64,000 bases of DNA from an uncultured Chloroflexia bacterium. GTDB taxonomy: Bacteria; Chloroflexota; Limnocylindria; Limnocylindrales; CSP1-4. The DNA lies in the NCBI GenBank assembly GCA_963697135.1, contig CAVOMZ010000013.1, positions 180,859-244,858 of the forward strand. Direction: 5' to 3'. The stretch's first letter is position 1; every line of letters begins with the position of its first letter. Position numbers and translations under genes: made by a program. Below the pieces are notes generated by a model. That model was given only the letters and a program-made list of their open reading frames with translations. It searched no databases and was not told the origin of the DNA. Of this stretch, positions 21,677 to 31,790 are shown one piece after another.

Positions 21677-22867
21677 CGGGCTACCTCCACGTGGGCCGGC
21701 TCGCCGGGCACGACATCGGACAGGTCGAGCGGGACCCGGCCGGGCCGGGCCAGGATCTCGGCCAGGGCCTCGGGAATCGGGTCGACCGAATTCCAGTCGA
21801 CGGGCGGCCGGATATGGACCGAGTCCGGGCCGATGGCCTCGCCCAGGGCACCCCGGGCGGGATCCGTCGTCCACTCGATCGCCACCGCGCCCGAGGTGAA
21901 GCCGGCTCCGAAGGCCACGATCACGATCCGGTCGCCGACCTTGATCCGGCCGCTGTTGGCGGCCTCGGCCAGGGCAATCGGGATCGACGCGGCCGAGGTG
22001 TTGCCGTAGCGGTCGACGTTGACGAACATCCGCTCCATCGGCAGGTCGAGGCCCTTGGCCACGGCCTCGATGATCCGGACGTTGGCCTGGTGCGGGATGA
22101 ACAGGCTGATGTCGGCCGGCTGCAGGCCGGCATGCTCGATCGCCGCGAGCGCCGTGCTGGCCAGGGTCCGCGTCGCGAAGCGATACGTCTCGCGGCCTTC
22201 CATCCGGATGAAGTGCTCGCCGCGGGAGATCGTGGCCTCCGAGGGCGGGCTCTTCGAGCCGCCGGCCGGCAGCCAGATCATGTAGGCGCCCTGGGGCTCC
22301 GTCGTGAGCTCGATCCCCAGCCCGCCGCCGGGCTCGTCGGAGGCGGACAGGACGACCGCTCCGGCCCCGTCGCCGAACAGGATGCAGGTGTTCCGGTCGG
22401 TGTAGTCGAGGAAGCGGGTCAGCAGCTCGGCCCCGATGACCAGGACGTGGCGGGCCATCCCGCTCGTGATGTAGGCCTGGGCCGTGGCGTAGGCGTAGAC
22501 GAAGCCGGAGCAGGCCGCGGCGAGGTCCATGGCCGTCGCCCGGGTGTTGCCGATCGCTTCCTTGACCAGGACTGCCGTCGCCGGCATCCAGTAGTCGGGG
22601 CTCAGGGTCGCCACGAGGATCAGGTCGATCTCGTCTGGTTCGATCCCGGCCACGGCGATGGCCCGGAGCGCCGCAACCGCGGCCATCGAGGCCGTCGTCT
22701 CGTCGGCGGCAGCAACCCGGCGCTCGCGAATCCCCGTCCGGCTGACGATCCACTCGTCGGAGGTGTCGACCATCCGCTCGAGGTCGGCGTTGGTCAGGAC
22801 GCCCGCCGGGGCGTAGCGGCCCCAGCCGGTGAGCAGGGCGCGAGCGAGCCGGCCGGACGGCGTTCAC
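21673..22867 (-). pseudogene. fabH: 3-oxoacyl-ACP synthase III; 5'-proximal frameshift as assembled
   Basis: ORF 21673-22773 carries AAACSGF, HQANVRI and GNTSAAS. The conserved N-terminus ...RALLTGWGRYAPAGVLTNADLERMVDTSDEW is open upstream but has no start codon. The only start (GTG 22867, overlapping the accB stop) is in the adjacent frame, so a +/-1 shift lies within about 22840-22865. Confidence 0.9.
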
Positions 22868-23378
22868 AGCGGCTCGACCTCGATCAGGGGCTGGCGCGCC
22901 TTGACCAGCTGGCCGCTCTCGGCGACGACCCGAACGACCCGTCCGGCCAGGTCCGACTTGATCTCGTTGAACAGCTTCATCGCCTCGATCAGGCCGATCA
23001 CCTGGCCGACCGCGACCTCGCCCCCGGCCTGGACGTAGTCGGCCGAGCCGGGCGACGGCGAGGTATAGAAGATCCCGGTGAGCGGGGCCTTGACCGAGGG
23101 CCGGGCGACCTCCGCCGGCGCGCCGCCCGGGGCCGATCCGGGCTGCGTCGGGGCAGCCGCTGCCGGGGCGGGTGCCGTCGTCGGACGGAGCGCGCCGCCT
23201 TGCGCAGGACCAGTCCGGTCTCGCCGGCCTGGATCTCGAGCTCGGTCAGCTCGCTCCGTTCGAGCAGGAGGGCCAGCCGGTCGACGAGTCCGAGGAGCGA
23301 CTGGTCGGCTGGGCCGGGACCGGTCTTCTCCGCCGCGGCCTCGCTCGACATCGAGCCGGCTTCCTGCTCACCGTTCAT
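22864..23378 (-). pseudogene. accB: biotin carboxyl carrier protein with canonical EAMK biotinylation motif; one frameshift in the linker (about 23185)
   Basis: The N-terminal part of ORF 22998-23378 (LLGLVDRLALLLERSELTELEIQAGETGLVLRK) joins, via a 1-nt deficit, to PTTAPAPAAAAP...VKAPLTGIFYTSPSPGSADYVQAGGEVAVGQVIGLIEAMKLFNEIKSDLAGRVV...IEVEPL* ending at 22864. Confidence 0.85.
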
Positions 23379-24634
23379 CCGGCGAACCGGCTGAAGATGA
23401 GCGTCGTGTTCTGGCCGCCGAACCCGAACGAGTTGCTCATCGCGATCCGGATCTCGCGCCGGCCCGCCGTCAGGGGCGTCAGGTCGAGGCCTTCAGCCAG
23501 CTCGTCAGGCTCGACCAGGTTGATCGTGGGCGGGATGATCCCGCTCCGGATCGACTGGATCGTCGAGATCGCCTCGAGCGCACCCGCCGCGCCGAGGGTG
23601 TGGCCGATCATCGACTTGTTGGCGGTCACCGCGACCTCGGGGGCATGGTCGCCGAAGATCGTCCGGATCGCCATCAGCTCGGCCTTGTCGCCCTCCTCGG
23701 TCGAGGTCGCGTGGGCGTTCAGGTGATCGATCGCGGTCGGCGCGAGGCCGGCCTTCTCGAGGGCCCGCCGGGCGGCTCGCACGGCCCCGCTGCCACCCGG
23801 CGCGGGCGACGTGATGTGGTAGGCATCGGCCGTTGCGCCGTAGCCGATCAGCTCGGCCAGCGGCTCCGCGCCGCGCGCCCGGGCGTGCTCGAGCTCCTCG
23901 AGGATCAGGACCCCGCAGCCCTCGCCCATGACGAAGCCGTCTCGGCCCCGGTCGAATGGCCGGGAGGCTCCGGCCGGATCGTCGTTCCGGGTCGACAGGG
24001 CGCGCATCGCGGCAAAGCCGGCGACGAGCGCCTCCTGGACCCCGGCCTCCGAGCCGCCGGCGATCATCACGTCGGCATCGCCGCGCCGGATGATCTCCCA
24101 CGATTCGCCGATCGCGTGGCCGCCCGTGGCACAGGCCGAGACGACGGCGAAGCTCGGGCCCATCGCCCCGAACGAGATCGAGAGCTGGCCGGCGGCGACG
24201 TTGGGGATCGCCATCGGGACGAAGAACGGGCTGACCCGGTCCGGGCCACGGGTGGCGTTGATCGTGATCTGTTCGCAGAGGGTGTTCACGCCGCCCAGGC
24301 CGGTCCCCAGGATCACCCCGGTTGCCTCGGCCAGGCTCCCCTCGAGGCGCCCCGGCAGGCCCGCTCCGTCGAGCGCCTCGCGGGCCGCGACGAGGCCGAG
24401 CTGGGTGTAGCGGTCGGACCGCCGGATCTCCTTCCGATCGAGGACCAGGCTGGCGTCGAAGTTGGGGATTCCGGCCGCGATCGTGCGTCGTCAGCCGGTC
24501 CGGCTCGAACTCGTCGATCCGATGGACCCCGGAACGACCCGCCACGAGGCCGGACCAGAGCGAGTCGACGCCCGCCCCAGGGACGACACGGCGCCCATCC
24601 CGGTGATCACGACCCGCCGGCTGCCACCGCTCAT
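23375..24634 (-). pseudogene. fabF: 3-oxoacyl-ACP synthase II; two frameshifts in the first 160 nt (about 24576 and 24481)
   Basis: MSGGSRRVVITGMGAVSSLG / (A)GVDSLWSGLVAGRSGVHRIDEFEPDRLTTH / IAAEIPNFDASLVLDRKEIRRSDRYTQLG... lie in three frames. ORF 23375-24316 carries SACATGGHAIG, NAHATST and GHTLGAAG. ATGA overlaps occur at both gene ends. Confidence 0.9.
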
Positions 24635-25375
24635 CGGACGAGCCGCCCGGTTCGGACGGTGGCGGCCCGGTAGACATCACCGGGCAGGCCCCTGGCCGAG
24701 AGCGCGTTGCTCACCGCCAGCGCGTCGAACTCGGTCCGGCGGATCTGGGCCGTGACCTCGTCGTCGACGATATCGACGATCGCCCAGGACGCGCTCGGCT
24801 CGCCGTCGAAGACGTAGCCCACGCTGCCGGCATTGACGATCAGCTTCCAGCCGAGGTCGCGGACCTCTGGCAGGTGGGTGTGGCCGCAGCCGATGACCCG
24901 GGCGTCGGTCCGGGCCGCTCGCTCGAGGGTGACATTCGGGTCGAGAGCGGCATCGAACCCTTCGGTCTGGGAGCCCGGCGAGGCGTGGAGTCGCCAGGAG
25001 CAGCGTCTCGCCCAGGCGCAGCCGGCGCTCGGATGGCAGGCGCCGGAGCCAGTCGATCCGGGCCTCCCCAAGCTCGTCGTGGGCCCACTCGGCCGCCGAG
25101 CGAATCGACTCGGGCACGCCGTCCATCAGGGACGGGAAGGCGGCCGAGTAGTCGAAGTCGGCCACGGCGATGTCGGTGTTGCCGGCGACCACGAGGGCCC
25201 CGGCGGCCTCCAGCTCGCGGATCGCGTCGGCGGCGCCGGCCGGATCCGGCCCGTTCATCACGAGGTCGCCGCAGATCACGGTCGCGTCGGGCTTCTCCTT
25301 GCGCAGGATCGCCCGGACCGCCTCGAGGGCCACGAGGTTGCCGTGGATGTCGCTCAGGATCGCGATCCGGGCCAT
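24631..25375 (-). pseudogene. metallophosphoesterase (YfcE/MJ0936-like); one frameshift (about 24990)
   Basis: MARIAILSDIHGNLVAL...VICGDLV...VVAGNTD (ORF 24677-25375) continues as LHASPGSQTEGF...VIGCGHTHLPEVRDLGWKLIVNAGSVG (ORF 24631-25071). Confidence 0.75.
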
Positions 25376-25842
25376 CAGCGGAGCACCGAGGCGTCGGGGA
25401 TGATGAAGCTCAGGGTGGCCTGGCAGGCGACTTCGCCATCGACCGTGGCCGTGCCGAGCCCGCGCCCGAAACGCCGGCCGAGCTTGTCCATGACCACCTC
25501 GAGGCGGAGCGTGTCACCGGGGCTGACGACCCGCTTGAAGCGGCACTCGTCGATCCCGCCGAACAGGCCGACCCGGTCTCCGAAGCCGGGCTGCTTGGCC
25601 ACGTACACGGCCATCGTCTGGGCCAGCGCCTCGACCTGGATTACTCCGGGCATGACCGGCAGGCCCGGGAAATGGCCCTGGAAGAACCATTCGCTCGCGG
25701 TCACCGCCTTGAGTCCGACGATCCGCCCGGCCGCCTCGTCGTATTCGATGATCCGGTCCACCAGCAGGAACGGCCAGCGATGCGGGATCAGGCCTTCGAT
25801 CTCGCGGGTGGTGTGGACGACGGCGGCGGGTGAATCGGTCAT
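25375..25842 (-). CDS. fabZ: 3-hydroxyacyl-ACP dehydratase
   Basis: 155 aa from ATG 25842 in the lower part of ORF 25375-26133. LIPHRWPFLLVDRI, FFQGHFPGLPVMPGVIQVEALAQ. Confidence 0.9.
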   Translation of the reverse strand: MTDSPAAVVHTTREIEGLIPHRWPFLLVDRIIEYDEAAGRIVGLKAVTASEWFFQGHFPGLPVMPGVIQVEALAQTMAVYVAKQPGFGDRVGLFGGIDECRFKRVVSPGDTLRLEVVMDKLGRRFGRGLGTATVDGEVACQATLSFIIPDASVLR

Positions 25843-25936
25843 CGGCAGCTCCAGGTTGGTCGGCAAGAGTGTGCCCGCCCGGGGGCGGTCCGTGCGGCTG
25901 ATTCCGTGCAGGTCTGCAACACGAGCCCCGGCCCCC

Positions 25937-27308
25937 TCAGCGAGCGGCGGCGGCAAGGAACGAGCCGCGCCCCGACCCGGTCGACCAGGTTCGTGGTCAT
26001 CCGGCCGGCCAGGAACACCTCGTTCCGGAGCAGGGCCTGGTGGATCGCGACGTTCGTGGTCGACGCCGTCGATGACCAGCTCCTCGAGGGCGCCAGCGAT
26101 CGGGCGATCGCGGTCGGGCGATCGGGGCCCCACACGATCAGCTTGCCCAGGAGCGAGTCGTAGAACGGGGGGACCTCGTAGCCCGGGAAGAGGTGGGTGT
26201 CCATCCGGACGCCCGGGCCGCCCGGGGCGAGATAGCGCTCGACGACGCCCGTGCTCGGCCGGAAGTCATGCTCGGCGTCCTCGGCGTTGATCCGGAACTC
26301 GATCGCATGGCCGCGCAGCGACGACGTCGGCCTGGCTGAACCCGAGCGGCTCGCCGGCGGCGATCCGGATCTGGGTCGTCACGAGGTCGATCCCGGTCAG
26401 CATCTCGGTCACCGGGTGCTCGACCTGGATCCGGCAGTTGATCTCGATGAAGTAGGCGTTGCCGGCCTGGTCGACGAGGAACTCGAGGGTACCGACGTTC
26501 TCGTAGCCGGCCGCCACGACGGCCCTGATCGCCCGTTCGGCGAGATCGGTCCGGGCGGCTTCGGCCGAGGGCCGGGGTGGGCGCCTCCTCGAGGAACTTC
26601 TGGTGGCGGCGCTGGACCGAGCAGTCCCGTTCGCCGAGGTGGACGCCATGGCCGAACCGGTCGACGGCGACCTGGACCTCGACGTGGCGGTTGTCCTCGA
26701 GCCATTTCTCGAGATAGAGCGAATCGTCGCCGAAGGCGGAGCGCGCCTCGGACCGGCAGATCTTGACTGCGGCCTCGAGCTCGCGCGGGGTGCGGACCAT
26801 CCGCATGCCCTTGCCCCCGCCGCCGGCCGAGGGCTTGATCAGGACGGGGTAGCCGATCCGCTCGGCCTCCTCGAGGGCGTGCAGGTCGTCGCGGAGCATC
26901 CCGTTCGAGCCGGGGATCGTCGGCAGGCCCTGGGCGCCCGAGCAGGTGGCGGGTCGCCTCCTTGCTGGCGAACCGCTCGAGGACCTGGGCGGGCGGGCCG
27001 ATGAAGGTCAGGTCGTGGGCTCGGACGACCTCGGCGAAGCCCTCGTCCTCGGACAGGAAGCCGTAGCCCGGGTGGATCGCGTCGCAGCCGGTCACGATGG
27101 CTGCGCTGATCATGGCCGGAGCCGACAGGTAGCTCCGCTTGGCATCGGCCGGGCCGACGCAGATCGCCTCGTCGGCCAGCTGGACGGCCAGGCTCTCCCG
27201 ATCGGCCTCGCTGTAGGCGACGACGGCCTCGACCCCGAGGGACCGGCAGGCGCGCAGGATCCGGACGGCGATCTCGCCCCGGTTGGCGATCAGGATCTTC
27301 GAGAACAT
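25937..27308 (-). pseudogene. accC: acetyl-CoA carboxylase biotin carboxylase subunit; about six frameshifts as assembled
   Basis: The pieces lie in ORFs 26409-27308, 26138-26899, 26266-26649, 25839-26204 and 25375-26133. MFSKILIANRGEIAVRILRA..., [95 protein letters not shown]. Junctions at about 26938, 26566, 26329, 26100, 26061, 25965. The probable stop is TGA at 25937. Confidence 0.9.
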
Positions 27309-27865
27309 CAGGCCTCCCGCCCGGTTCGATCGACGGGGGCCGTGATCAGCTCGATCCAGACGAGCTCCTGGCCGTACTCGACGGCGTCGCCCGCTTCGAC
27401 CATCGCCGCCCCGACGATCCCGGCGACCGGCGCGACCACCTCCTGGGGGATGCCCAGCACGTCGACGCTGGCGATCCGATCGCCGGCCCGGACCCGCGAG
27501 CCCGAGGAGATCTCGGCCCGGGGATGGTAGACCCCGACCGCCGGCGAGGTGGCCGCGGTGCGGTAAGGATCGCCCGCCGGTTCGGCCGGCGGCCGGTGCC
27601 CGTCGGACCGCCCGGCATCAAGATGGCCGGGTTCGGCCGGGTGGCCCGCGGCCGGGCGGCTCGATCGGCCGCCGGAGGCTCGCCCGGTGCCCGGGGTCCC
27701 GTCGAGCGGACCCCGCAGCCGGATCTTCCAGTCGCCCTCGCTCACCTCGAGCTCGGCCAGGCCGGTCGCTCCAAGCTTCGCGATCAGGGCCGGCAACAGG
27801 TCATCGGCCAGGCCGAGGATCTGCCGGTGGTCGGCGAGCCGGGCGGCCTCCTTGCGGGGTGGCAC
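27308..27865 (-). CDS. BCCP-like biotinyl-domain protein lacking the biotinylated lysine
   Basis: Intact 185-aa ORF. GTG follows GAGGAGG 3 nt after the accA stop, and TGATG overlaps the accC start. BCCP-type N-terminus (LLPALIAKLGATGLAELEVSEGDWKIRL) and C-terminal hairpin fold (SPAVGVYHP...VRAGDRIASVDVLGIPQEVVAPVAGIVGAAMVEAGDAVEYGQELVWIE). DVLG replaces EAMK. Confidence 0.7.
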   Translation of the reverse strand: MPPRKEAARLADHRQILGLADDLLPALIAKLGATGLAELEVSEGDWKIRLRGPLDGTPGTGRASGGRSSRPAAGHPAEPGHLDAGRSDGHRPPAEPAGDPYRTAATSPAVGVYHPRAEISSGSRVRAGDRIASVDVLGIPQEVVAPVAGIVGAAMVEAGDAVEYGQELVWIELITAPVDRTGREA

Positions 27866-27868
27866 GGA

Positions 27869-28910
27869 TCAAACCTCCTCGCGAGCGGGCGGCTCGTCGG
27901 CTGAAGGGGCGGGGTCTGGAATCGGACCGGTCGGCGACCCGGCCGGCATTCGGCCGGAGCCGCCGAGGAGGTGGCGCAGGCGATCGGTCAGACCGGCCCG
28001 CTCGGGAACCGTTGGGGGCTCCAGGTCGAGGGTCGTGAACGCACCCAGCGCACGATAGCGCCGATAGCGGGCTTCGATCAGCTCATCGAGCGAGACCCGC
28101 TCGAGGGCCTCGAGGTGGCGGACGACGGCCGACTTGATCGTGGCGGCGGTCGCCTCATGGTCGAGGTGGGCGCCCCCGACCGGTTCTGGCAGGACCTCGT
28201 CGACGACGCCCAGCTCGAGCTGGTCGGCTGCGGTCATTCGCATCGCCAGGGCCGCGGCCGGGGCCTGGTCGGGGGTCCGCCACAGGATCGAGGCGCAACC
28301 CTCCGGGCTGATCACCGAGTAGACCGCGTTCTCCAGGGCCAGGACCACGTCGCCGACTGCCACCGCGATCGCCCCGCCGGAGCCGCCCTCACCGGTGATC
28401 ACGGTCACGATTGGTGTCCGCAGGCGGGTCATCAGGGCGATCGAGCTGGCGATCGCCTCGGCGATTCCGCGTTCCTCGGATTCGGCCCCGGGATGGGCCC
28501 CGGGCACGTCGACGAAGGTCACGATCGGCAGGCCCAGCCGGGCGCCGAGCTCCATCACCCGGACGGCCTTGCGATAGCCCTCGGGATGGGGCATCCCGAA
28601 GTTGCGCCGGATGTTCTCGTCGGTCTCGGCGCCCTTCTGCTGGCCGACCACGACGACCCGCCGGCCATCGATCCGGGCCAGGCCGGCGACGATCGCCGGG
28701 TCGTCGCCGAAGTAGCGATCACCGTGCAGCTCGACGAACTCGTCCGCGATCAGGTTCACGATCTCGAGGGTCCGCGGCCGGCGCAGGTTGCGGGCGAGCT
28801 GGACCCGGGCCCAGACGGCGGCCGTCGGATCGAGCCGTTGCCTCGGCCGGCGGATCGGCCTCGGCCGTGGCCGTCTTGCGCCGGGTCCGGCCGGTCAGGC
28901 GCTCAACCAC
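27869..28910 (-). pseudogene. accA: acetyl-CoA carboxylase carboxyltransferase alpha subunit; one frameshift near the 5' end (about 28835)
   Basis: ORF 27869-28759 carries FGMPHPEGYRKA, PIVTFVDVPGAHPG and GEGGSGGA. The conserved upstream LDPTAAVWARVQLARNLRRPRTLEIV is open but start-less. GTG 28910 (VVERLTGRTRRK...) lies one frame off. Confidence 0.88.
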
Positions 28911-29844
28911 GGGCGGCCTCCTCCGGCTCGGGGATCACCCGCTCGGCCAGGGCGCTCAGGAACGACAGCGGCCGGAACGCCGGGATATTGCTCGCCTCGG
29001 CCGAACCGTCGACCTCGACCGGGGCGAGGAGGCCGACCAGCTGGGCGAGCTCATCGCGCAGGCCCGAGCGATGGACGACCCGGTCGACGAAGCCGTGCTG
29101 GAACAGGAACTCCGAGCGCTGAAAGCCCTCCGGCAGCTCGCCCTGGATCGTGCCTGCGCTGACCCGCGCCCCGGCGAACCCGATCAGGGCGTTCGGCTCG
29201 GCGAGGTTCACGTCGCCGAGGGCCGCGAACGAGGCGAACACCCCGCCGGTCGTCGGATCGCTCATGACCGAGATCAGCGGCAGGCCGGCGGCCCGCAGGC
29301 GCTCGGTGGCCGCGACCGTCTTGACCAGCTGCATCAGGGACAGCGTCCCCTCCTGCATCCGGGCGCCGCCCGAGGCGGCCACGATCACCAGGGGCAGGCG
29401 CCGGGCGAGGGCTGCCTCGGCCGAGCGGGTCACCTTCTCGCCGACCACGCTGCCCATCGAACCGCCCATGAACGAGAAGTCCATGACGCAGATCGCGATC
29501 TCGTGGCCGCCGATCCGGCCGGTTCCCCAGACCGCGGCATCGCGCATGCCCGTGCTCGACTGGGCCGCGGCCAGCCGGTCGGGATACGCCTTCAGGTCGA
29601 CAAAGCCAAGCGGGTCGAGCGACTGGAGACCGGCATCGTGCTCCTCGAACGAGCCCGAGTCGAGGAGCAGCTCGAGGCGCGCCTCGGCCGACATCCGGAA
29701 ATGGTGGCCGCAGTTCGAGCAGACCCGGAGGACCTTGTCGAGCTGCTTGTTGAAGAGCATCTCGTGGCATTGCGGGCACTGGGTCCACAGGTCGGGCGGG
29801 TAGGCGTCCCGCCGCTGGCGGAACGAGGGCAGCTTGATCGGCAT
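28903..29844 (-). CDS. accD: acetyl-CoA carboxylase carboxyltransferase beta subunit
   Basis: Intact 313-aa ORF. Zinc ribbon CPQCHEMLFNKQLDKVLRVCSNCGHH, then FSFMGGSMGSVVGEK and SGGARMQEG. Confidence 0.93.
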   Translation of the reverse strand: MPIKLPSFRQRRDAYPPDLWTQCPQCHEMLFNKQLDKVLRVCSNCGHHFRMSAEARLELLLDSGSFEEHDAGLQSLDPLGFVDLKAYPDRLAAAQSSTGMRDAAVWGTGRIGGHEIAICVMDFSFMGGSMGSVVGEKVTRSAEAALARRLPLVIVAASGGARMQEGTLSLMQLVKTVAATERLRAAGLPLISVMSDPTTGGVFASFAALGDVNLAEPNALIGFAGARVSAGTIQGELPEGFQRSEFLFQHGFVDRVVHRSGLRDELAQLVGLLAPVEVDGSAEASNIPAFRPLSFLSALAERVIPEPEEAARG

Positions 29845-30353
29845 CAGGCCAGGCCCGACTCGCGGGCGGCCTGGTCGTGGACCGTGCGGATCGCCCGGAC
29901 CATCGGGTGGATCGGCCGGCTCAACCGCCAGGCGACGTAGGCCGCCCCGGCCAGCGACAGGGCGGCCGAGGTGATCGCCCCGCCGATCAGGTACGGCCGG
30001 GCCCGACCCGGCGGATCGTCGTCGCCCGGATCGGCCAGCTCGACCAGGTCACCGACGTGGTCCGCCCCGAGCCGACGGGGCGGGCCGGACCCGCCGCCAA
30101 CGGCCGCCGGCAAGCGCCCGCCGGCGGCCTGGGCGGCCAGCAGGCGGCCGAGCCGCTCCTCGAAGCGGAACGAGGGATGGACCCGGACAAGCTCGGCCGA
30201 GAGCCGCTCGGAGATCGAGCGGAGCTCGAGATCGAGCTCCGGGTCGTAGGGCGCCGCGGCCGAACCGCGCTCCCGGGCATTCAGGATCGACTCGAGATAG
30301 CGATCGATCCGGAGCGCCTCGATCTCGGGCTCGGTGTCGCGGCCCGGCATCAC
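29844..30353 (-). CDS. putative membrane-anchored anti-sigma factor
   Basis: 169-aa ORF overlapping the sigma-factor stop. It has one C-terminal TM helix (YLIGGAITSAALSLAGAAYVAW). The call rests on position only. Confidence 0.5.
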   Translation of the reverse strand: MMPGRDTEPEIEALRIDRYLESILNARERGSAAAPYDPELDLELRSISERLSAELVRVHPSFRFEERLGRLLAAQAAGGRLPAAVGGGSGPPRRLGADHVGDLVELADPGDDDPPGRARPYLIGGAITSAALSLAGAAYVAWRLSRPIHPMVRAIRTVHDQAARESGLA

Positions 30354-30982
30354 CAGCGCCGACCGCCCAGGTCCCGGGCGACGGCCCGCAGCCCGCGGTG
30401 GATCAGGACCCGCACGGCCCCCTCCGAGCGCCCCAGGATGCCCGCGATCTCGGCCGTGGACATCTCCTCGACGAAGCGCAGGACGAGGGCATGGCGCCGG
30501 TCGGGGGGCAGGCGGCTGACCGCCTCCCAGGCCGCCCCGGCCTCGTGGCGGCGGCCGGCCTCTCCCTCGAGATCGAGGGGATCGGCCACGAGCGCGGCGA
30601 CCTCGAGGGGCGCCGCCGGGTGACGGCGCTCGGAGCGGCGGGCGTTGGCCACGACGTTCCGGGCGATCTGGAAGAGCCAGACCCGGAAGGTCGAGGCGCC
30701 TTCGCCGTCGGCCGGCCGGGCGCGTTCGTCGAAGCGGGGCAGGGCGCTCAACGCCTGGAGGAACGTGCGCTCGGCGACATCCTCGGCGTCGGCGTGGTTG
30801 CCGAGCTCGTAGTAGGCGTAGCTGTACACCTGGGCGAGGTACTTCCGATACAGCGCGTCGAACGCCTCTGGGTCGAGGACGGCGGCCTCGACAAGGGCTC
30901 GATCGCGATCGAGGTGGATCAGGTGATGACCCAGACGACGATCCTCCTCCGCCGTCACCTTCCTGAACACCGGCCGGGCCAC
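30350..30982 (-). CDS. ECF-type RNA polymerase sigma factor
   Basis: 210-aa ORF. Region 2 (YRKYLAQVYSYAYYELGNHADAEDVAERTFLQA) and region 4 HTH (MSTAEIAGILGRSEGAVRVLIHRGLRAV). Confidence 0.85.
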   Translation of the reverse strand: MARPVFRKVTAEEDRRLGHHLIHLDRDRALVEAAVLDPEAFDALYRKYLAQVYSYAYYELGNHADAEDVAERTFLQALSALPRFDERARPADGEGASTFRVWLFQIARNVVANARRSERRHPAAPLEVAALVADPLDLEGEAGRRHEAGAAWEAVSRLPPDRRHALVLRFVEEMSTAEIAGILGRSEGAVRVLIHRGLRAVARDLGGRRW

Positions 30983-30986
30983 CGCG

Positions 30987-31790
30987 TTACACCCCGACCG
31001 GCAGGCGAAGGTGCTCGATCTCGCCGGTCAGGATCGTCCGCTCGCCGGCGGGCGCCGCGACGTCCTCGATGACGAGCCCACCCGAGCCCGTGTCGACCCC
31101 CAGGGCCCGGGTGTCGAGCGACGAGCCATCGGGCAGGTCGAGCCGGACGGGCCGGCCGCTGGTGAGCTGCCGGGAGGTCCAGTCGGCGACGTCGAAGTGG
31201 CCGGCGCGCAGGGCGATCGTGCGGGTCTCGACCCGGTCGATGAAGGCAGCGAAGAGATCCGCCAGGTCGACCGGACGGCCGTTCGAGGCGACTCGCAGGC
31301 TGGTCATCGAGCCGGCCAGCTCGGCCGGGAAGTCCTCGGCCAGCCAGTCGACGTTGATCCCCAGACCGATGATCGCCCGGGGATCGTCGCCGCCCAGGCC
31401 GGAGGTCTCGCCCAGGACGCCGCCGAGCTTGCGAACCAGGCCGTCCGCCTCGATCACGAGGTCGTTCGGCCACTTCAGCCGGACCGCTTGATCCTTCAGG
31501 CCGGCGACCTCCTCGGCGGCGTCGGCCATCGCCAGCGAAGTGATCGCAGCGAGGCGCCAGGTCCGATCCGGCTCGAGCCAGGTCGGACGAAAGCCGAGCG
31601 AACAGAGCAGGCCGGCCCCGGCCGGCGCCTGCCAGCGGCGGCCATCCCGGCCGCGCCCGGCCGTCTGCTCGTCGGCCACGGCCAGGCAGACCTCCGGGGT
31701 GCCGTCGTCGAGCCAGGCACGGACGACGTCGTTCGTCGAGCCGACCCTCGCCAGGCGCTCCTGGCGGCTGATGAACGGCAGGTCGCTCAA
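30987..31790 (-). CDS. birA: biotin--[acetyl-CoA-carboxylase] ligase (no N-terminal HTH domain)
   Basis: 267-aa ORF with GRGRDGRRW and KWPNDL motifs. Confidence 0.88.
   Translation of the reverse strand: MSDLPFISRQERLARVGSTNDVVRAWLDDGTPEVCLAVADEQTAGRGRDGRRWQAPAGAGLLCSLGFRPTWLEPDRTWRLAAITSLAMADAAEEVAGLKDQAVRLKWPNDLVIEADGLVRKLGGVLGETSGLGGDDPRAIIGLGINVDWLAEDFPAELAGSMTSLRVASNGRPVDLADLFAAFIDRVETRTIALRAGHFDVADWTSRQLTSGRPVRLDLPDGSSLDTRALGVDTGSGGLVIEDVAAPAGERTILTGEIEHLRLPVGV

Follow-up and report, generated by a model that had tools for sequence, protein, structure and literature searches.

Heteromeric acetyl-CoA carboxylase (ACC) is a target of antibiotics and herbicides. To our knowledge, look-alikes of its biotin carboxyl carrier protein (BCCP) that cannot be biotinylated have been described only for the plastid ACCase of plants and algae, and whether they serve as inhibitors or in assembly is debated. 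These proteins, the BADCs, are BCCP homologues that consist of folded domains and a disordered region, lack a biotinylation motif and coexist with true BCCPs (PMC12706156, PMC11889953). They are thought to bind biotin carboxylase (BC) and to modulate or assemble the BC-BCCP subcomplex, and a purely inhibitory role is now disputed in the plant literature (PMC12706156, PMC11889953). Here we describe a gene encoding a lysine-less BCCP paralog, hereafter protein X, at positions 27308..27865 (minus strand) of a 64,000-nt stretch of a Limnocylindria (Chloroflexota) genome assembly (contig CAVOMZ010000013.1). This whole stretch, referred to below as the window, has a G+C content of 71% and carries a block of fatty-acid genes on its minus strand.

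Among bacteria, the actinobacterial AccE epsilon subunit and the MSMEG_0435-0436 complex provide a precedent for non-catalytic proteins that bind and alter biotin-dependent carboxylases (PMC13012033; AccE in PMC3199775). Unlike X, these proteins are unrelated to BCCP in sequence and fold and are no carrier look-alikes. For BCCP itself, an alpha/beta/beta motif has been predicted in the first 30 residues of the E. coli protein, and ten such motifs modelled with AlphaFold-Multimer formed a beta-barrel that agrees with the central density of ACC tubes (PMC11160672). In BC1 of Chloroflexus, two BC dimers are joined by a BCCP-derived beta-barrel (PMC11077971). BCCP was explicitly excluded from the phylogenies of Lombard and Moreira 2011. 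Our full-text literature searches found no description of a lysine-less BCCP in bacteria, and none is described in the papers on MSMEG_0435-0436 (PMC13012033) and on Chloroflexus BC1 (PMC11077971), in line with an earlier note on this stretch, written from the sequence itself, which knew of no equivalent in bacterial ACC.

Results

The gene encoding X has a GTG start and an uninterrupted open reading frame (ORF) of 185 aa, and same-length orthologues that are 94% identical to it are present in two relatives, the short-read metagenome contig L001 and L005 (OY970185.1). On the upstream side, TCC separates the accA stop codon TGA (27869-27871) from the GTG, a gap of 3 nt, and a Shine-Dalgarno sequence, GAGGAGG, lies 8 nt 5' of the GTG within the 3' end of accA. 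On the downstream side, the stop codon TGA of X (27308-27310) and the ATG of accC (27306-27308) share one A, which gives TGATG. This arrangement of a 3-nt gap and a 1-nt overlap recurs in L001 and in a further related locus, L003. The earlier note had placed an intact ORF between accA and accC and had regarded it as translationally coupled to both, and the junctions in the window and in the two related loci bear this out.

The residue that would carry biotin is missing from X. Both in a sequence alignment and in a profile search against PDB sequences, Gly138 (codon GGC, 27452..27454, minus strand), which lies in the motif VDVLGIPQEV, aligned with Lys122 in the EAMKM motif of E. coli BCCP. No MK or EAMK motif was present in either of the two other frames of 27300-27870. 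The claim that VDVLGIPQEV replaces the lysine motif and that no frame restores EAMK was therefore reproduced by the alignments and by the three-frame translation. An alternative acceptor lysine was considered and rejected, as the C-terminal domain of X contains no lysine at all; a C-terminal domain without any lysine was also found in 187 of 249 family members. By its sequence, X is a BCCP-derived "pseudo-carrier" that is predicted to be unable to be biotinylated.

In its architecture X follows BCCP. The top match of the PDB-sequence profile search was full-length E. coli BCCP (4hr7_B), aligned from the N-terminal module through the C-terminus. Pfam Biotin_lipoyl (PF00364) matched residues 106-170 with 28.1 bits, compared with a gathering cut-off of 22.1, and the alignment with AccB confirmed within this domain that the lysine is lost as Gly138. 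The BCCP model TIGR00531 aligned residues 26-172 of X with model positions 8-155 of 156 at 37.4 bits, under its cut-off of 115.2, so that X lies outside the AccB/BCCP equivalog in two respects, its score and the absent (E/A)MKM biotinyl-lysine.

The three-part layout of AccB/BCCP (N-terminal module, Pro/Ala linker and C-terminal carrier domain) is present in X. Residues 5-52 (27710..27853, minus strand) form a helix and beta-hairpin module in the AlphaFold2 model (helix 6-34, strands 38-43 and 46-51), which aligns with 4hr7_B and TIGR00531, is homologous to the oligomerisation/BC-anchoring module of BCCP and resembles the alpha/beta/beta motif predicted for E. coli BCCP (PMC11160672). Residues 53-99 (27569..27709, minus strand) constitute a Pro/Ala/Gly/His-rich linker, disordered in the model over about residues 55-100 (pLDDT 40-50) and variable in length in the alignment. 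In the linker columns of the family alignment A1 (residues ~75-95), a His-rich stretch with the consensus GHxxHGH is common to many members, for example SRSQPGHAGHGHAP. The lysine-free biotinyl-type barrel-sandwich domain comprises residues 100-174 (27344..27568, minus strand) and was modelled with a pLDDT above 94 over residues 100-175. Its best Foldseek match was the E. coli biotinyl domain 1bdo, with a TM-score of 0.82 (target), an rmsd of 1.2 A and 32% identity over 76 columns. The BCCP-like N-terminus and the C-terminal hairpin fold that had been read from the sequence were thus recovered by TIGR00531, 4hr7_B, the AlphaFold2 model and the 1bdo match. Aligned with E. coli BCCP, the X proteins of Limnocylindria show a six-residue deletion at the "thumb". 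An HlyD/RND efflux adaptor or an RnfC-like protein was also considered for X and rejected, given the low scores (HlyD_3, 15.2 against a cut-off of 22.2; RnfC_N, 13.8 against 25.6), the BCCP-type N-terminus and the acc-operon context.

The lysine column was then read for an EAMK or MKM lysine in two sets of homologues. Searched against 5.8 billion proteins, X had 2,933 matches, and in the best 120 of these, 45-94% identical to X, the column held glycine in 120/120. Among 1.84 billion cluster representatives (50% identity), a profile search detected 170 clusters at E <= 1e-30; of the 150 best that were listed, 148 representatives carry glycine at the lysine position, and the remaining two look like broken reads. 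In alignment A1, 41 columns are invariant, L137-G138 among them. Pairwise dN/dS for nine orthologues was 0.19 in the N-terminal module, 0.41 in the linker and 0.18 in the C-terminal domain. Both folded domains of X are under purifying selection.

The distribution of the family was surveyed in a 301-genome sample of Chloroflexota, in which taxonomic families are represented by codes (f1, f2 and so on), and in a scan with one genome per species. In the scan, 383 genomes contained the family; the 80 with the best matches were nearly all labelled as Limnocylindria or as unclassified Chloroflexota metagenome-assembled genomes. A match to X was present in all 33 sampled Limnocylindria genomes (f1, f2 and f3), the Lys position being read in 6 of the 17 f2/f3 genomes, and a lysine-less paralog recurs between accA and accC throughout the sampled Limnocylindria families. 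Confinement of the family to Limnocylindria was rejected, since lysine-less loci occur in other coded families as well. Among the weaker matches of the phylum sample, nine further coded families carry a lysine-less BCCP-like X in the order pepP, efp, X, xseA. The lysine-less gene is not a local oddity; it belongs to one old family that extends over most of the phylum, with members in no fewer than 12 of the coded families, and its usual home is the efp-xseA slot.

The residue at the Lys position of the efp-xseA slot proteins is Gly in f20 and f25, Asn in f8, f12, f23, f27 and f36, Gln in f6 and f16, Arg in f8 and Ala in f27. The preceding Met is replaced by Leu in every efp-linked lysine-less protein, which gives a tip of the form E-x-L-x. 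The difference in tip residue from one family to another (G, N, Q, R, A) argues against a replacement covalent cofactor at this site, and another cofactor at the tip was rejected on this ground. The C-terminal motif PVEYGQPL is retained in the lysine-less family. Coded family f23 represents Ktedonobacteria, and the Asn form is found in the cultured Thermogemmatispora carboxidivorans (WP_052888619.1), T. tikiterensis (WP_112427577.1), T. onikobensis, T. aurantia and Dictyobacter kobayashii (WP_126549111.1), as well as in 105 of 106 further homologues. One protein of the Ktedonobacteria-type lysine-less group, P0376, encoded on a 1.6-kb metagenome contig, reads IESLKVINEV, with a lysine at the tip but with the derived Leu kept; this protein may have reverted or may represent an intermediate. 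The lysine-less members from Ktedonobacteria score 97-102 bits on TIGR00531 (cut-off 115.2) and the true fabF-linked AccB scores 100.5, and because these scores are about equal, the model cannot separate lysine-less proteins from true fabF-linked AccB.

Chloroflexia-type genomes (f13, f30, f63, f52, f49 and f65; one of 5,258,541 bp) have a normal EAMK accB (TIGR00531 scores of 136-168 bits) as their efp/xseA-linked gene, and a fabF-type copy of accB was not detectable by score in those examined. All lysine-less genomes examined also have a canonical accB (xE[AST]MK[VILS]FNE) that directly follows fabF; often, accC precedes this fabF-accB pair and fabH follows it. The fabF-accB linkage was seen in 16 other Chloroflexota loci. 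A role of X exclusively with a fused BC-BCCP was rejected, as the canonical accB that follows fabF in the same genomes stands alone. In the window genome, efp and xseA are only ~230 nt apart, and the slot between them is empty.

A maximum-likelihood tree, unrooted, was calculated from 60 sequences, including 31 lysine-less proteins from 12 coded families. All 31 fell on one side of a branch with support of 99/96, and one label change suffices. The lysine-less proteins have a single origin. The Limnocylindria copies (97/95) were nested among the efp-linked ones, adjoining f20 (95/83), and the canonical proteins formed a classical clade of E. coli and Chloroflexia (97/83) and a fabF-linked clade (95/89). 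Synteny points to a descent of the lysine-less family from the classical efp-linked accB. In the history that we propose, a second accB would have arisen beside fabF, and the lysine of the old efp-linked accB would then have been lost in a single event at an early stage of the phylum. In Limnocylindria, the lysine-less copy would later have moved from the efp-xseA slot to its position between accA and accC. The lysine-less gene looks like the former accB, deprived of its lysine, with biotin being carried by the fabF-linked copy.

The remaining genes of the operon lie, like X, on the minus strand of the window. The carboxyltransferase beta gene accD, with its zinc ribbon (28903..29844; Pfam Carboxyl_trans and Zn_ribbon_ACC), is 97% identical to accD of L001. 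The carboxyltransferase alpha gene accA (27869..28910; Pfam ACCA, 356 bits) was covered by tblastn over residues 26-346 in one frame, the N-terminal ~25 codons being out of frame. The biotin carboxylase gene accC (25940..27308) extends over four frames, with Biotin_carb_N, CPSase_L_D2 and Biotin_carb_C on separate ORFs and tblastn matches in pieces. A metallophosphoesterase gene (24634-25375; Metallophos/Metallophos_2) lies between fabZ and fabF, and fabF (23375..24634; tblastn residues 1-419) is directly upstream of the canonical accB (22864..23378; IEAMKLFNEIK). In the latter, Biotin_lipoyl matched the C-terminal part with 50.6 bits, and tblastn matched in two frames. Gly138 and this gene order support what had been claimed of the operon as a whole, a non-biotinylatable BCCP paralog beside a canonical AccB. 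The EAMK motif reported for AccB proper at 22864-23378 was found there, but the gene as read in the window is not intact, as a 1-bp deletion near 23193 splits its frame.

Upstream of accD and on the same strand is a trio, also present in L004, that consists of a birA-like biotin protein ligase gene (30987..31790), a gene encoding an ECF-type sigma factor (30350-30982) and a putative anti-sigma gene (29844-30353), the sigma gene lying between the other two and the anti-sigma gene preceding accD. The birA-like gene was taken from the ORF list, and its orthologue in L004 has a PF03099 domain (BPL_LplA_LipB) followed by Sigma70 domains. The order in L001, L003 and L004 is (birA, sigma, anti-sigma), accD, accA, X, accC, fabZ, metallophosphoesterase, fabF, accB, fabH, fabG, and the order is kept across all three coded Limnocylindria families sampled (f1, f2 and f3). 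Six f2/f3 loci have the order of the window and an LG tip; in the five of these that are from f3, X and accC are separated by fabD, and stop and start codons overlap. The metallophosphoesterase gene is kept in f1 and f2 and is missing in f3, where fabD separates X and accC. Elsewhere in the window genome (contig C2:97900-101500), a second carboxylase set was found that comprises a carboxyltransferase, a BC 47% identical to accC and a biotinyl protein in a 176-aa frame, and in another genome, G231 (L102), a 155-aa carrier with VLEAMKMNN is encoded beside carboxyltransferase genes. These second sets are separate biotin enzymes and lie outside the lysine-less finding.

The broken frames around X were traced by aligning this region of the window with L001 and L005, at 93-94% nucleotide identity. 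Eleven window-specific 1-bp indels were found within 22800-28900: six in accC (near 26937, 26564, 26320, 26091, 26062 and 25967), an insertion in accA near 28833, one in the metallophosphoesterase gene (24989), two in fabF (24574 and 24486) and the deletion in accB near 23193. The two fabF indels are 88 nt apart and restore the reading frame. At the ten sites covered by both relatives, L001 and L005 have the same sequence, which differs from that of the window. L001 ends before accB, and the accB indel is supported by L005 alone, which has one extra base and an intact gene. In both relatives accC is intact, with 455 aa. L005 is not itself free of errors, as it has its own 1-bp frameshift in accD (L005:5208). 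The completeness of the source genome was 62.8% at 3.06 Mb, and relatives of similar size reach 92-97%. The indels of the window are probably long-read consensus errors rather than signs of gene death, and fragmented gene calls are to be expected in this genome. The ORF of X and accD show no indel against L001 or L005. Because X is free of indels against these two relatives and because glycine is kept in its homologues, the loss of the lysine is not an error.

Discussion

The comparison with plant BADC that the earlier note had drawn holds for the formal features. Like the BADCs of plants and green algae (Arabidopsis BADC1-3, plastid heteromeric ACCase), X is a BCCP homologue without a biotinylation motif that occurs alongside a true BCCP. 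It differs from them in being bacterial and operon-encoded and in its tip, E-x-L-[GNQRA], and the Limnocylindria branch is also thumb-deleted. An origin independent of plant BADC is likely, judging from the clade formed within the Chloroflexota sample and from the efp-X-xseA slot of its members outside Limnocylindria. With AccB/BCCP (TIGR00531; E. coli AccB, 1bdo, 4hr7), X shares the architecture, the fold and the genomic slots, namely before accC and after efp. It differs in the absence of the biotinyl-lysine, in the replacement of Met-Lys by Leu-Gly and in the six missing thumb residues, and is predicted to be unable to carry carboxybiotin. X is a real and conserved, apparently undescribed bacterial analogue of the plant regulatory or assembly subunit. 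What is new here is that two genomic contexts are linked by one clade, that the efp slot of the window genome is empty and that the lysine-less genomes examined have a fabF-linked carrier.

On balance, we lean towards reading X as a constitutive, non-catalytic fifth subunit of ACC. X retains all that a BCCP requires for membership in the complex but none of what is required for chemistry. The reading is also favoured because the varying tip residue speaks against a replacement cofactor and because the gene appears to have moved into the acc operon, where it is coupled to two core subunits. Translational coupling would cause X to be made in a fixed proportion with AccA and AccC, and X could join AccB by co-oligomerisation through their common N-terminal module. 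The biotin-free domain of X might dock on the biotin carboxylase or on the carboxyltransferase, and X would then influence how the complex assembles or how many biotin arms are active, as has been proposed for plant BADC. We infer from the sequence that X may bind AccB and AccC and may have an effect on activity.

A bolder proposal, for which we rate the chances rather below even, extends this to most Chloroflexota outside Chloroflexia. ACC would there consist of five proteins, and the former efp-linked AccB would be an obligatory, biotin-free architectural subunit that provides an N-terminal hub and a "parking" domain. All biotin carrying would be done by the fabF-linked AccB, so that the two jobs of BCCP would have been divided independently of plant BADC.

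Several observations weigh against a fifth subunit. As read here, accC and accB are broken, so this record by itself shows no working ACC. Outside Limnocylindria, X has efp, pepP and xseA as neighbours and lies apart from the acc genes, and the gene-order link with ACC comes from one class. The unrooted tree is silent on which canonical clade is the parent, and it is from synteny alone that the descent from the efp-linked accB is drawn. Finally, translational coupling fits a stoichiometric subunit but would also allow an inhibitor.

The last point leads to the strongest competitor, which we consider unlikely but serious, namely that X is a decoy, occupying the biotin carboxylase site in competition with holo-AccB and reducing ACC activity. 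Its formal design would be the same as that of BADC (a BCCP fold, no lysine and a coexisting real BCCP), and the initial descriptions of BADCs cast them as negative regulators (PMC12706156); a down-regulating role of X would thus be suggested by analogy with BADC. However, being coupled between two core subunits in Limnocylindria, X would be produced constitutively and in a fixed ratio with them, not dosed according to conditions; no sign of regulatory input was seen, and later plant work has BADC mediating the formation of the BC-BCCP subcomplex (PMC11889953). The sequence data would fit a decoy inhibitor and a non-catalytic subunit alike and do not separate them.

It is improbable, in our judgement, that X performs a job without biotin and outside ACC, for instance as an adaptor for its neighbours EF-P, PepP or exonuclease VII in which the carrier fold is reused. 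The nine coded families with pepP-efp-X-xseA and no acc gene nearby are what such a job would lead one to expect. Against this, the efp linkage is the normal position of accB in Chloroflexia-type genomes, so the neighbourhood is inherited; moreover, the proposed relocation in Limnocylindria went into the acc operon, and the BCCP-specific N-terminal module has been retained. That X is an artefact, whether a sequencing error or a dead, decaying accB copy, is scarcely credible: many 1-bp indels do affect neighbouring genes of this assembly, but the X ORF has none against either relative, glycine recurs in hundreds of independent assemblies of a phylum-wide family, and the folded domains evolve at a dN/dS of ~0.18.

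Whichever role X has, the annotation of the family needs attention. Public records call these lysine-less proteins "acetyl-CoA carboxylase biotin carboxyl carrier protein" or "biotin/lipoyl-containing protein", and in NCBI and UniRef the BCCP name is given to those of the cultured Thermogemmatispora and Dictyobacter (P0361, P0360, P0467 and others). This is a systematic annotation error, by which metabolic reconstructions of Chloroflexota may take the wrong gene as accB. If X is indeed a conserved bacterial counterpart of BADC, the "dummy carrier" design would have arisen more than once. The family would offer a simpler system, encoded in an operon, for testing what such subunits do, with cultured hosts in Thermogemmatispora and Dictyobacter, and would bear on how heteromeric ACC is assembled.

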